DNA of 64,000 nucleotides from Campylobacterales bacterium (GTDB lineage: Bacteria; Campylobacterota; Campylobacteria; Campylobacterales; UBA6016), in the NCBI GenBank assembly GCA_050252455.1, contig JBFWKW010000006.1:926-64925 (forward strand), in the 5' to 3' direction. The notes beneath the pieces are model-generated. The model was given only the letters and a program-made list of their open reading frames with translations, ran no database searches and was not told the origin of the DNA. Shown here piece by piece: positions 31,635 through 33,530 of the stretch. How positions within the stretch are numbered: position 1 is the stretch's first letter; each line of letters starts with the position of its first letter. The translations under genes and the position numbers were made by a program.

Positions 31635-33530
31635 ATGAATTTTGTTTTTAACGGTAGAGGGCTGACACTAAATCTACTTTTTTTCTGTCTGATTGCAGTT
31701 ATGGGCGGGTGCGCCCAAAAGCAGAGCGCCGAACCGGTAAAAGTCGTCAAAAAAAAGCAAAATTCTGATTACACAAAAGCCCTGCAAGAAGGTATGGCAG
31801 CTCTTAAAAGCGGAAGCTCTAAAGAGGCTATCGAGATTTTTAACGGGGCTATCAGTACCGCCCCGACCAATGCACGCCTGCACTTCTTACTAGCCTTGTC
31901 CTATCATATAGATTTTCTAAACGGCAACTACGGCTCAGCCCAGCTTGCAGAGACCGGATATACCGTGGCTGCACAGCTGGAGCCTGGGTTTTTGCCTGTG
32001 AATTTACAACTTGCAAGGTTTTATATAGATACCAACCGCCCAGCTGATGCCAAAATAACCTTGTTAAAAATGCTAGAAATAGACAGCAGCTCATCCGAGA
32101 CGGCATTTGAGCTGGCTAACGCCTCATATATAGCAAAGGACGTCAAGACGGCGGCAAAAGCGATACTGTTGGCGCACAAGTTGGAGCCTGAAAATTTGAA
32201 AATACTTGAGTCGGGCGCCATCATTTGTGCGGCGGCAAATCTGACATCTGAATCAGAAAAAATGTTTGATATGTTGTCAAAAAACAAGGGGATTTCCGCA
32301 GAGAGTCTGCAAAATATAAAAAAGCGGATGCAACAGTGGCAAAAACTAAGCTCTGCAAATGTCAAAATCCAAATGGCACAAAATGATACAAACACCACGC
32401 AACAAACGACAATGCCCAGCATAATGTCGATGAGCGACTCAAAACCGCTTTCGACGCACTGGGCAGACTGTACACAAAGCGCACCGAGGAGCGATGACGG
32501 AGGCAGTAGATACGACTCAGGTAGAAACGATGCGGATATTTTGGCAGCGGCAGCAAAACTACAGGCCCTCCCAAGCCCTTGTGCAGGAAAGCCGCTACCT
32601 AGAATGACGATAATCGACGCAGCTATTATTTTGGCGGATGACTCTACATATCAAAGCAGGGGCATCAACTTATTGGACAGCCTAAAGACGGTCTTTAGCT
32701 GGTCCGATATCATCACCAAGACCACCAACAACGGTCTAGCGACAACCGAGAGGATAAGAAAATCGGGAATAGGCCTACCGGATGGAGGCATCACATACTC
32801 TCTAAATATCGCCAACAACCAAAATTATCACAATCATATTCTGGCTAGACCCTCACTTGTAGCTTTAGACAGACAGCCCGCTACATTTTTCTCAGGGGCG
32901 AGCGTGACAGTTTCGATTTCAGGGCAGGTATCCGGAGGCGACTTGGTAGAAAAACCGATAGGGATAGGGCTATCCGTGACGCCCACGTTTGTCGACGATG
33001 AGACTTTGTTATTGGCGGTCAAAATCACACGTTCTAGCGTCGGACTTAATGATGCGCCTGGTGATTTTAACGAGTCTATGCACGTATACAAAAGCGGCGT
33101 CTCAACCAGCGTAATAATGAAGCTCAACCAAACGCTCATACTCTCAGGACTCATTGAAAAAGAGAATGAAACGGGAACTTCCGCAACCCCAGCAATGGAG
33201 GATATTCCGGTCGCCGGATATCTTTTTGGCAACAAAACAAAGCAAAATATTCAAAAATCGTTGCTGGTAGTCATAACGCCGAGAAAAGCGGCCGCATCAT
33301 CGGGCAAGCAACAAAGTGTTGAAGCCGACGAAGCGGCAAACATCGCACTACAACGACAAATTTTTAAAGAGATAATACTTCCGACAGAGTTTGAACAATA
33401 TACAATCGACTATAGCGGCGAGCGTTTTGTTTCGTATTTCAAAAAAGATGACGTAAAAATAGCGGATTGGACAGAGACCGAAAGAATTGAAAAACTACTA
33501 AAGAGCGCCGTGAGAGCAGATTTTGACTAG
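31635..33530 (+). CDS. lipoprotein TPR::secretin-core fusion (type II/III secretion system secretin family C-domain)
   Basis: 631 aa. Signal peptide with lipobox-like 'VMGGC', TPR-like repeats at about aa 45-230, and a polar S/T/Q/D-rich linker. The secretin C-domain blocks are 'ILARPSLVALDRQPATFFSG', 'GIGLSVTPTF', 'TLILSGLIE' and 'IPVAGYLFGNKT....SLLVVITPR'. No N0-N3 ring domains recognised. Confidence 0.8.
   Translation: MNFVFNGRGLTLNLLFFCLIAVMGGCAQKQSAEPVKVVKKKQNSDYTKALQEGMAALKSGSSKEAIEIFNGAISTAPTNARLHFLLALSYHIDFLNGNYGSAQLAETGYTVAAQLEPGFLPVNLQLARFYIDTNRPADAKITLLKMLEIDSSSSETAFELANASYIAKDVKTAAKAILLAHKLEPENLKILESGAIICAAANLTSESEKMFDMLSKNKGISAESLQNIKKRMQQWQKLSSANVKIQMAQNDTNTTQQTTMPSIMSMSDSKPLSTHWADCTQSAPRSDDGGSRYDSGRNDADILAAAAKLQALPSPCAGKPLPRMTIIDAAIILADDSTYQSRGINLLDSLKTVFSWSDIITKTTNNGLATTERIRKSGIGLPDGGITYSLNIANNQNYHNHILARPSLVALDRQPATFFSGASVTVSISGQVSGGDLVEKPIGIGLSVTPTFVDDETLLLAVKITRSSVGLNDAPGDFNESMHVYKSGVSTSVIMKLNQTLILSGLIEKENETGTSATPAMEDIPVAGYLFGNKTKQNIQKSLLVVITPRKAAASSGKQQSVEADEAANIALQRQIFKEIILPTEFEQYTIDYSGERFVSYFKKDDVKIADWTETERIEKLLKSAVRADFD

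Follow-up and report, generated by a model that had tools for sequence, protein, structure and literature searches.

Secretins are known as parts of trans-envelope machines, namely the type II (T2SS) and type III (T3SS) secretion systems, type IV pili (T4P), the Tad apparatus and filamentous phages, and the textbook rule is that their N-terminal rings couple the pore to an inner-membrane motor while a filament pushes the gate open. To our knowledge, every characterised secretin docks to an inner-membrane platform via N0-N3 domains. HxcQ is a secretin that is itself a lipoprotein and needs no separate pilotin; we take it to keep N0-N3, to be free of tetratricopeptide repeats (TPRs) and to belong to a complete Hxc T2SS operon with one known substrate. 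It has been cited as the only known exception to the pilotin dependence of secretins. In the Tad system of Pseudomonas aeruginosa, TadD, a lipidated crescent of five TPRs, packs around RcpA, a minimal secretin without an N3 domain, and the TPR groove of TadD binds the last C-terminal residues of RcpA (PMC10499894). Here we analyse a secretin gene in a stretch of 64,000 nucleotides, hereafter the window, of a Campylobacterales bacterium (assembly GCA_050252455.1, contig JBFWKW010000006.1, positions 926 to 64,925 of the forward strand). Its product of 631 amino acids (aa) carries a lipoprotein-TPR N-terminus in place of the N0-N3 rings and belongs to a large family of such lipo-TPR secretins, which we tentatively propose to be self-piloting pores that release their genetic neighbours.

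The protein begins with a signal peptide, MNFVFNGRGLTLNLLFFCLIAVMGGC followed by AQ, that ends in a lipobox (...LIAVMGGC). The Pfam models TPR_19, TPR_14 and TPR_17 exceed their gathering scores within aa 50-190, and the Secretin model PF00263 matches aa 395-550 (E = 7e-30; 104.3 bits vs. a gathering cut-off of 27.5); the secretin motifs quoted in an earlier note on this DNA lie at aa 401-420, 524-535 and 543-550. An AlphaFold2 (AF2) monomer model built on an alignment of 61 family members (mean predicted local distance difference test score, pLDDT, 77.6) shows 12 TPR-type helices at aa 42-252 (pLDDT ~95), disorder at aa 253-320, a beta-rich core at aa 324-551 and a helical tail at aa 557-627 (helices 557-576, 584-589, 596-601 and 615-627). 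Foldseek matches the core to the secretin cores of T2SS, T4P, T3SS, Tad and pIV (E = 5e-14 to 1e-9), and the sequence matches in the PDB are likewise secretin cores, those of GspD (6i1x), RcpA (8odn; aa 338-552) and PilQ. The PHROG profile of M13 pIV covers aa 327-552, which independently places the start of the core directly after the linker; the alignments to pIV, MshL and RcpA all start at about aa 323-338, just past it. The families Secretin_N, N0, STN, BON and AMIN have zero matches in the window protein among the Pfam and NCBIfam profiles, and in Pfam none of the 61 aligned family members matches an N-domain family, whereas all 61 match Secretin. A beta-alpha-beta-beta-alpha N-domain is found nowhere in the AF2 model. 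Pfam, the model and the lipobox at Cys26 thus bear out the proposal of the earlier note that a lipoprotein-TPR N-terminus replaces N0-N3 ahead of a secretin C-domain, and neither profile nor structure analysis brought to light the canonical N0/N1-type domains that it had been unable to see. Compared with the ortholog at a syntenic locus of a close relative (L006), the ratio of nonsynonymous to synonymous substitution rates (dN/dS) is 0.08 for the whole protein, 0.085 for the TPR domain, 0.11 for the linker, 0.028 for the core and 0.14 for the tail, so that each part of the protein evolves under purifying selection.

A word-indexed search returned 91 clusters, nearly all of 600-740 aa with TPR plus Secretin, under the source labels 'hypothetical', 'tetratricopeptide repeat protein', 'GspD', 'PilF' and 'TadD' only. 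Searching 1.84 billion representatives with a hidden Markov model profile of the family, we identified 1,324 proteins at E<=1e-30, of which the best 150 all score above 459 bits. These are representative clusters at 50% identity, and the family has at least this number of them; the suggestion that such a fusion would be an unusual solution, in the sense of a one-off, does not hold. The members come from Campylobacterota, Desulfobulbia and Alpha-, Beta- and Gammaproteobacteria. When a single genome was scanned for each species, 42 loci in five classes emerged, in Sulfurospirillum (including strain SCADC), Desulfurivibrio and other Desulfobulbia, Hydrosulfovibrio, Rheinheimera (including the cultured Rheinheimera soli), the Rhodospirillales Tagaea, Nitrospirillum iridis DSM 22198 and Ferrovibrio, and the Betaproteobacteria Sulfuritalea, Thiobacillus, Azonexus and Polynucleobacter. 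A protein 100% identical to the window protein, from a Campylobacterales metagenome-assembled genome (MAG), is labelled 'hypothetical protein'. None of Pfam, NCBIfam, PHROG and PADLOC holds a family-specific model, and a full-text literature search, with subscription-only papers outside its coverage, gave no account of a TPR-fused, N-domain-less or stand-alone secretin. Taken together, these results leave us in hardly any doubt about the lipo-TPR secretin architecture and the family that shares it.

Three other origins or roles of the family were considered and set aside. A plasmid-borne mobile module would be at odds with the single plasmid copy among 72,556 records, an Asticcacaulis TPR-secretin annotated 'tetratricopeptide repeat protein'. 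For a phage (pIV-like) origin, we found a relative on only one viral contig in 2.9 million, with no Zot- or pI-like genes nearby; this copy (L061, 8001-9647, IMGVR_UViG_3300045452_000083) lies at the very end of a 44.7-kb contig, so that it probably belongs to host DNA next to a prophage and not to the phage. For a role in anti-phage defence, PADLOC gave no meaningful match.

By its domain the protein is a secretin, and it falls outside the GspD, PilQ/HofQ, SctC, MshL and RcpA families. The NCBIfam models of PilQ, GspD, HofQ, SctC and MshL align to it through their C-terminal cores only and far under their cut-offs: the GspD model TIGR02517 scores 74.1 bits vs. 351, with only profile positions 418-588 of 600 aligned, the PilQ model TIGR02515 scores 75.2 vs. 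284, and the HofQ models score 64-66 vs. 554-598. The core aligns to aa 154-370 of RcpA, and the features that would mark an RcpA/CpaC protein are missing: the protein has neither a BON nor a VirB9-like domain, and its surroundings contain no Flp motif and no adenosine triphosphatase (ATPase) of the TadA type. These scores bear on the possibility that a conventional machine of the type IV filament kind (T4P, competence/Cts, Tad, MSHA or T2SS), with its other genes elsewhere in the genome, uses this protein as its outer-membrane secretin, in which case the TPR domain would be a fused TadD-, MshN- or PilF-type pilotin and the secreted neighbours described below would be incidental or T2SS-type substrates. 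Secretin genes can be unlinked from their machines, and the core aligns about equally with PilQ, GspD, HofQ, MshL and RcpA; the MshL profile is covered nearly end to end (35-288 of 290), MSHA and Tad use the TPR partners MshN and TadD, and the RcpA of P. aeruginosa likewise has no N3. Against this stand the shortfall of the NCBIfam secretin equivalogs (74-75 bits vs. cut-offs of 284-351) and the absence, in all 61 members, of an N0- or VirB9-like domain for contact with PilP, GspC or a counterpart of these.

Genomic context points the same way. Machinery was looked for in the 64-kb window and within ±10 kb of ~45 family loci representing 24 clades. An open reading frame (ORF) map of the window contains no secretion ATPase, platform, pilin or prepilin peptidase genes, a search of all six frames for the Walker A motif of GspE/PilB, for class-III prepilins and for Flp found no machinery, and neither did Pfam searches with 20 window ORFs that were unclear by eye or the precomputed Pfam annotation of the syntenic ±10 kb in L006, the 88%-identical relative. 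The orphan status reported earlier is therefore upheld within the window, where T4P and competence genes are not linked to the secretin. Genes gspC-M are absent within ±30 kb in the window and within ±10 kb in the ~45 family loci; the Pfam-annotated contexts of nine diverse members contain no T2SS, T4P or Tad genes, and a scan of 854 kb of family loci yielded no prepilin or Flp motif. In these 854 kb, a GspE-type Walker A motif occurs only at two related Rhodocyclales loci from MAGs, each with a lone GspE/PilB-type ATPase (Walker A GPTGSGKTT; L025, 110-2020, minus strand; L035, 2007-3902, minus strand) that is divergent, 1-2 kb from the TPR-secretin, separated from it by unrelated genes and unaccompanied by platform or pilin genes. 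This proximity speaks for a filament machine, but as the motor of the secretin we set aside a lone divergent gene of this kind. Clustering every ORF within ±10 kb all against all left only the secretin itself and generic two-component regulators as common across the 24 clades, the regulators recurring at about chance frequency, and the idea of a hidden conserved partner in this range was accordingly dropped. The evidence is locus-level and as such compatible with distal machine genes. However, at ~45 loci in 24 clades no pil, gsp, tad, msh or cts cluster contains or adjoins the gene, and such constant unlinkage would be odd for a dedicated component, characterised secretins usually being clustered with their machines in at least some lineages; moreover, taxa such as Rheinheimera presumably own a PilQ and a GspD already. 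We consider a conventional filament machine unlikely, without dismissing it. Since N0-N3 docking domains are missing and no ATPase, platform and pilin set is linked, a stand-alone pore appears most likely, and, judging from the missing N0-type docking domain, we lean slightly towards function without a T2SS- or T4P-type machine.

The order of a lipobox and then a TPR domain of ~5-6 repeats is the architecture of a pilotin, and the window protein has it. PilF, PilW and Tgl, the partners of PilQ, share the lipobox directly followed by about six TPR repeats. Foldseek matches the N-terminal part to consensus TPR proteins, OGT and PilF (2ho1; E = 1.8e-6, target TM-score 0.69), and an alignment of the family profile with PilF begins at the lipobox (2fi7; E = 4e-12). 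Used by itself as the query, however, the TPR domain finds its best matches in consensus TPRs, PilF reaches only E ~0.5 and TadD is undetected; generic TPR proteins also outscore PilF against the lipo-TPR secretin, and the NCBIfam models of PilW (TIGR02521; 29.9 vs. a cut-off of 154) and Tgl (NF033762; 16.7 vs. 225) are far from matching. Kinship of the domain with PilF, PilW or TadD, which the earlier note had brought into play, thus cannot be demonstrated beyond its being a generic TPR. PilQ differs from the lipo-TPR secretins in having AMIN, N0 and N3 domains and in sitting in pilMNOPQ operons. The lipobox is present in about three quarters of the family members, one subclade having a signal peptidase I signal instead.

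Among described systems, we propose that the lipo-TPR secretin would work most like a covalent RcpA-TadD pair and the liposecretin HxcQ. With RcpA-TadD (PDB 8odn, PMC10499894) it shares a minimal core without N3, to which RcpA aligns at aa 338-552 (Foldseek E = 1.5e-10), a TPR domain of ~5-6 repeats that is predicted to be lipidated, and a C-terminal end of note, the extreme C-terminus being the pilotin-binding element of RcpA and a conserved tail here. It differs in being one polypeptide with the TPR domain N-terminal on a 70-aa Cys-bracketed tether, in lacking a VirB9-like N-domain and nearby tad genes (ATPase, platform, Flp pilin), and in having no detectable sequence similarity to TadD. 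With HxcQ it has in common that the secretin is itself a lipoprotein; unlike HxcQ, the family has neither any of the N0-N3 domains nor a T2SS operon. The tail carries the family motif FRxGD...W...L...LY[YF]-COOH, and 54 of the 61 members end in [FLM][LIM]Y[YF]-COOH. Diverged C-termini are found in the window protein (...RADFD) and in a Sulfurospirillum protein, P0006 (...KLQP), both of which also lack the TPR residue R192, conserved at 85%. This paired loss would fit a TPR carboxylate clamp that holds the C-terminus and, the two proteins being related, is only a hint. The TadD-RcpA precedent and the conserved tail lend indirect support to self-piloting. Furthermore, the TPR domain is as constrained as the rest of the protein although the partners described below vary, which favours a conserved ligand, such as the protein's own tail or barrel, over a cargo receptor. 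We therefore regard a role of the TPR domain as a pilotin or scaffold in cis as somewhat the better bet. Even on a conservative reading, this is the first covalent arrangement of a TPR pilotin and a secretin.

The linker, which had been described as a polar stretch between the two halves, is indeed disordered and polar, but it is no featureless spacer: W276, C279, L312, P313, C316 and P322 are invariant in the family alignment and belong to the conserved motifs W-x-D-C and L-P-x-P-C-x-G-x-P-L-P-R-M. The two cysteines bracket a variable loop, with a spacing of 28-69 residues across the family, and we infer that a Cys279-Cys316 disulfide staples the linker.

The only recurrent context of the family is a variable neighbour with a signal peptide. 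Signal peptides are predicted for 52% of the genes at ±1 of the secretin, compared to ~22% at distances of four genes or more. At least one such gene at ±1 was found in 33 of 38 loci (p = 1.5e-9) and in 22 of 24 clades (p = 1.1e-7), the chance expectation being 0.39; the loci L017, L025 and L038, whose secretin was mis-called by the gene caller, were left out of the clade statistics. The secreted protein next to the secretin, which the earlier note had treated as incidental, is thus part of a family-wide pattern, and the interest of the locus shifts from a curious fusion to a possible secretin-only export module.

The partners belong to classes that bear no relation to one another, and every class is met with in more than one lineage. 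Class a, to which the 453-aa protein of the window belongs, is also found downstream of the secretin in Azonexus and in a Rhodocyclaceae MAG. Class b comprises putative serine esterases of the DUF676/PGAP1 type (above the gathering score) in Sulfurospirillum and Desulfurivibrio, class c giant proteins of 1,174 to 2,139 aa in Betaproteobacteria, sometimes convergent with the secretin gene, and class d proteins of ~950 aa, often duplicated, in Desulfobulbia and Sulfurisoma. Rheinheimera has a 145-aa and a 696-aa protein, the latter a secreted amidohydrolase (class e), Polynucleobacter has tandem Cys-rich paralogs of ~260 aa (class f), and Desulfurivibrio (L015) has two Cys-rich proteins of ~210 aa upstream (class g). 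Further neighbours are a 138-aa protein with an Acanthaporin domain (E = 1.2e-8, above the cut-off) in Thiobacillus, a Ricin-B lectin at L059, and three hypothetical proteins with signal peptides on the Asticcacaulis plasmid. In a rough neighbour-joining tree of the secretins, partner class does not track phylogeny: the window secretin (class a) is sister to that of Sulfurospirillum (class b), the other class-a partners stand beside a different secretin clade, and the secretin with the acanthaporin partner is nested inside the class-c clade. The neighbour therefore appears to have been exchanged repeatedly around a conserved pore. Two features that might have united or explained partners were not substantiated: a targeting module shared by classes a, c and d yielded weak coiled-coil matches (E = 0.05-0.6), consistent in position and not significant, and for ricin-like C-termini seen by eye in partners at L037 and L040 Pfam was empty at E<=0.01.

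These neighbours also bear on whether the pore serves export at all. It might instead take up DNA or other macromolecules, anchor the envelope, or act as a valve for periplasmic release or lysis, the adjacency to secreted proteins then reflecting a shared envelope regulon and nothing else. HofQ/ComE-type secretins do serve uptake and HofQ models match the core; partner homologs occur without a secretin; and some neighbours are ordinary periplasmic or outer-membrane proteins (TonB-dependent receptor, TctC, DsbA-like proteins). A shared regulon, however, does not readily account for an enrichment that is specific to ±1 and decays with distance, for partners that include typical exoproteins (an esterase, a pore-forming-toxin domain, a lectin, giant repeat proteins), or for the repeated swapping of neighbours around a conserved pore, which is how transporter-cargo modules behave. 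We judge a non-export function to be improbable.

In the window, the partner gene precedes the secretin gene by 15 bp. The gap contains a ribosome-binding-site-like sequence and no terminator, and the next gene 3' of the secretin, which is queD-like, is convergent; we infer from this that the pair is co-transcribed. The dN/dS of the partner relative to its L006 ortholog is 0.056 (identities for the pair, 88% and 93%), and such strong purifying selection on both genes indicates that neither is a decayed relic. The partner belongs to no Pfam or NCBIfam family, and its homologs form 39 clusters, none of them annotated. An AF2 model (pLDDT 87) shows an elongated bundle of very long helices (14-96, 103-172, 179-209 and 214-255) and a long Cys-rich beta-hairpin (strands 258-289 and 292-323), and C272, C280, C298, C303 and C311 are invariant in the alignment. 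The bundle and hairpin had suggested an alpha-pore-forming toxin of the ClyA/Hbl/XaxA type, an idea that we dropped: the best Foldseek match has E = 9e-3 and a TM-score of ~0.2, MakB and SmhA follow at E = 0.07 and 0.24, and no HBL Pfam model matches. Partner homologs next to TPR-secretins in Azonexus (L020) and Rhodocyclaceae (L035) lie downstream, so that the gene order is inverted relative to the window.

The third alternative is an exporter of a non-protein polymer, an exopolysaccharide or slime, in which the pore would receive the polymer from the TPR domain as in AlgK/AlgE, BcsC, PgaA or PelB. Synthase-dependent polysaccharide export is marked by a periplasmic TPR domain joined to a channel in the outer membrane, a recent study showed that slime secretion requires secretins (PMC12475490), and in the window a 28-kb glycan/nonulosonic-acid island starts 2.4 kb downstream. 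This island, however, is on the opposite strand behind queD, a CHAD gene and moaA, and it occurs only in the window and a close relative, whereas ~40 other loci have no polysaccharide synthase or Wza/Wzc-type genes nearby and the neighbours that do recur are signal-peptide proteins. AlgK/AlgE, BcsC, PgaA and PelB resemble the family in their TPR-plus-pore layout and differ in that their pore is a porin barrel of 16-18 strands, the pore here being a secretin, and in that no synthase genes or operon are linked to it at the family loci. Export of a polymer therefore seems very improbable.

Two systems for protein export offer closer parallels. With Slam (type 11 secretion) the similarity is a functional analogy only and consists of a periplasmic N-terminal TPR domain plus a membrane pore, adjacent variable Sec-dependent cargo and no ATPase; Slam is a monomeric 14-strand DUF560 barrel whereas the secretin here should be multimeric by homology, Slam is no lipoprotein, and its cargoes are mainly lipoproteins or hemophores. 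Membership is contradicted by the profiles (TPR_Slam 19.6 vs. a cut-off of 35.2, E = 1.2e-3; no DUF560 match). Two-partner secretion (TpsB/TpsA), like other modules of a transporter with adjacent cargo, is organised in the same way at the gene level: the outer-membrane transporter is conserved, and the exoprotein paired with it is Sec-dependent, exchangeable and often very large. TpsB, however, belongs to the Omp85 barrels, carries POTRA domains and moves its cargo unfolded, whereas a secretin pore is wide enough for folded proteins, and many of the partners are Cys-rich, in keeping with a wide pore through which proteins pass folded and oxidised. Structurally, the core is matched best by short secretins, phage pIV and a secretin of A. 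caldus (PDB 7ofh; 8jvb/9wfd). The A. caldus protein, a nanopore scaffold, has no TPR domain, and the lipo-TPR family, unlike pIV, is essentially absent from viral contigs (one locus in 2.9 million). As for its own mode of action, pIV, as we understand it, contains an N0 domain and operates together with the pI/pXI ATPase of the phage.

The explanation that we favour, at a little less than even confidence, is a self-piloting lipo-TPR secretin that functions independently of an inner-membrane machine and through which its neighbour is released. The protein would be exported by Sec, lipidated at Cys26 and delivered to the outer membrane by Lol. Its C-terminal half, by homology, would multimerise into a gated secretin barrel, and the lipid-anchored TPR domain, on a 70-residue tether stapled by the Cys279-Cys316 disulfide, would be the protein's own pilotin or scaffold on the periphery of the barrel, by analogy with TadD around RcpA, and may clasp the conserved C-terminal tail. 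The result would be a stand-alone exit pore in the outer membrane. The probable cargo would be the 453-aa protein, Sec-exported and disulfide-rich, whose gene lies 15 bp upstream and is co-transcribed, and in other lineages the adjacent secreted esterase, toxin, lectin or giant protein. That the neighbour is an exported substrate is a suggestion that we hold a little less firmly than the explanation as a whole. More tentative again is the general scheme of a single-component secretion route, in which self-piloting secretins with no ATPase, pseudopilus or platform would release folded, disulfide-bonded neighbours (esterases, pore-forming toxins, lectins and giant proteins resembling adhesins or toxins), with cargo genes exchanged around a conserved pore across at least five classes.

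Several points weigh against secretin-only export of the neighbour. Such an exporter is without an apparent energy source or gate opener, and in all characterised secretins that we know of it is a pilus, pseudopilus, needle or phage filament that does the opening. Given locus-level data, the genome may encode, at a distance from this gene, a T4P, T2SS, Tad or competence machine without a secretin of its own. The label 'pilotin' is given on architecture, TPR-pilotin homology not being demonstrable, and the window protein, with its diverged end, is without the terminal Y[YF] motif of the family. The signal-peptide predictor and gene caller behind the neighbour statistics are crude home-made heuristics; two clades have no signal-peptide neighbour at ±1, and at L051/L060, L043 and L031 the only such neighbour is a TonB-dependent receptor, TctC or a rhodanese. 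The fold of the 453-aa partner gives no functional clue, Foldseek finding no significant match in the PDB. Finally, all three distant partner homologs that we examined (L055-L057; 35-57% identity) have no secretin within ±8 kb by tblastn, which rules out obligatory pairing of this partner class with the secretin.

Were they to hold, these conclusions would reach beyond the locus. A family of more than 1,000 clusters without N-domains, unlinked to a motor and linked to exchangeable secreted proteins would challenge the textbook rule for secretins, and secretin-only export, if demonstrated, would make the lipo-TPR secretins categorically new. If the neighbours are exported unaided, this would be a new and minimal way for folded proteins to cross the outer membrane and a route for many 'hypothetical' exoproteins of environmental sulfur- and nitrogen-cycling bacteria, and it would pose the sharp mechanistic question of what opens a secretin gate without a piston. 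Read conservatively, the family offers a natural system in which the targeting and assembly of a secretin can be studied on a single chain, and a large-pore scaffold, compact and self-inserting, like those now under development as nanopores. Cultured hosts allow direct tests: Rheinheimera soli, Nitrospirillum iridis DSM 22198, Polynucleobacter, Sulfurospirillum sp. SCADC and Asticcacaulis sp. AND118.

Table 1. Features of the secretin gene and its partner gene, in window coordinates.
Feature	Position (nt)	Strand	Description and basis
Partner gene, candidate substrate	30258..31619	+	453-aa Sec-signal protein; ORF; predicted cleavage after AHA24
Cys-rich repeat of partner, aa 258-323	31029..31226	+	PCGxKxC motifs, long beta-hairpin; sequence, alignment, model
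Intergenic gap, 15 bp	31620..31634	+	RBS-like GGGGA, no terminator; sequence, terminator scan
Lipoprotein TPR-secretin gene	31635..33530	+	631 aa plus stop; ORF call
Signal peptide with lipobox M-G-G-C	31635..31712 (lipobox 31701-31712)	+	Cys26 predicted lipidation site, Ala at +2
TPR superhelix, aa 42-252	31758..32390	+	12 helices, ~6 repeats; Pfam TPR_19/14/17, AF2 model
Disordered polar linker, aa 253-323	32391..32603	+	pLDDT <50; invariant columns
Linker Cys pair	Cys279 32469-32471; Cys316 32580-32582	+	Invariant in family alignment
Minimal secretin core, aa 324-551	32604..33287	+	Comprises barrel (outer and inner), gate and lip; not preceded by N3
Conserved helical C-terminal tail, aa 552-631	33288..33527	+	AF2 helices, family conservation

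Apart from this gene pair, the window contains housekeeping genes (glnA, clpX, nifB/nifV-like, moaA, queD) and the glycan-biosynthesis island. Genes for a NifB-like radical S-adenosylmethionine (SAM) enzyme, a homocitrate-synthase-like protein (NifV) and a NifX-like protein (Nitro_FeMo-Co, weak) at 14925-18224 suggest a diazotrophic Campylobacterales MAG; nifHDK is absent from the window. Just upstream of the secretin operon, at 27471-29425 (plus strand), a gene for a 416-aa radical-SAM/helix-hairpin-helix protein overlaps by 4 bp a 235-aa gene whose L006 ortholog is a DUF4130 protein, and this two-gene pair is conserved. On the opposite strand, a gene at 29376-29621 (minus strand) overlaps the DUF4130-like gene at its end; the product, a membrane protein of 81 aa with three helices, looks by eye only like a PQ-loop/SemiSWEET-type transporter.

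The CHAD-domain gene that adjoins queD (34075-34917, minus strand) has no counterpart in the 88%-identical relative, where a 71-aa ORF and a gene for a TIR-domain protein (L006, 13410-14551) lie between moaA and an asparagine-synthase-like gene; the interval from queD/moaA to the asparagine-synthase-like gene is thus a small variable spot beside the secretin operon. The island itself (35968-63933, minus strand; ~28 kb) has a G+C content of 35-42% vs. 46-48% nearby. It includes three asparagine-synthase-like amidotransferases, two HisH/HisF-like pairs, DegT-type aminotransferases, radical SAM enzymes and NeuB-like, UDP-GlcNAc-2-epimerase-like and cytidylyltransferase-like genes, together with two ORFs without a Pfam match (59109-60275 and 61463-62956), and looks like a flagellin-glycosylation or capsule cluster.

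Some further observations concern the partners elsewhere in the family. At two Desulfobulbia loci, a secreted 178-aa pentapeptide-repeat protein (L003, 14903-15439; L011, 15044-15580; Pfam E = 2e-37) is encoded between two ~950-aa partner genes. A pentapeptide-repeat protein has been reported to co-purify with cyanobacterial PilQ 'nozzles' (PMC12475490), so that the Desulfobulbia protein may be a recurring secretin accessory, or the resemblance a coincidence. At two of the secretin-less partner loci, the partner gene is preceded by one for a ~197-aa lipoprotein of no Pfam family (L055, 7356-7946; L057, 7377-7973), with an LTAC lipobox and the motif ALSLGGRDPLVLITRE, which could be an alternative outer-membrane partner for class-a proteins; a distant relative is encoded ~9 kb from the TPR-secretin at L014 (14160-14870). 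The surroundings of L055 (a European Nucleotide Archive contig of 2.75 Mb), with addAB-like (PDDEXK/UvrD) genes, rplM and rpsI, are shared with L001/L013 of Sulfurospirillum sp. SCADC. At this site, one genome carries the esterase, the TPR-secretin and a transposase, and another the lipoprotein and a class-a protein, which suggests that it is a variable insertion hot spot for exoprotein modules.

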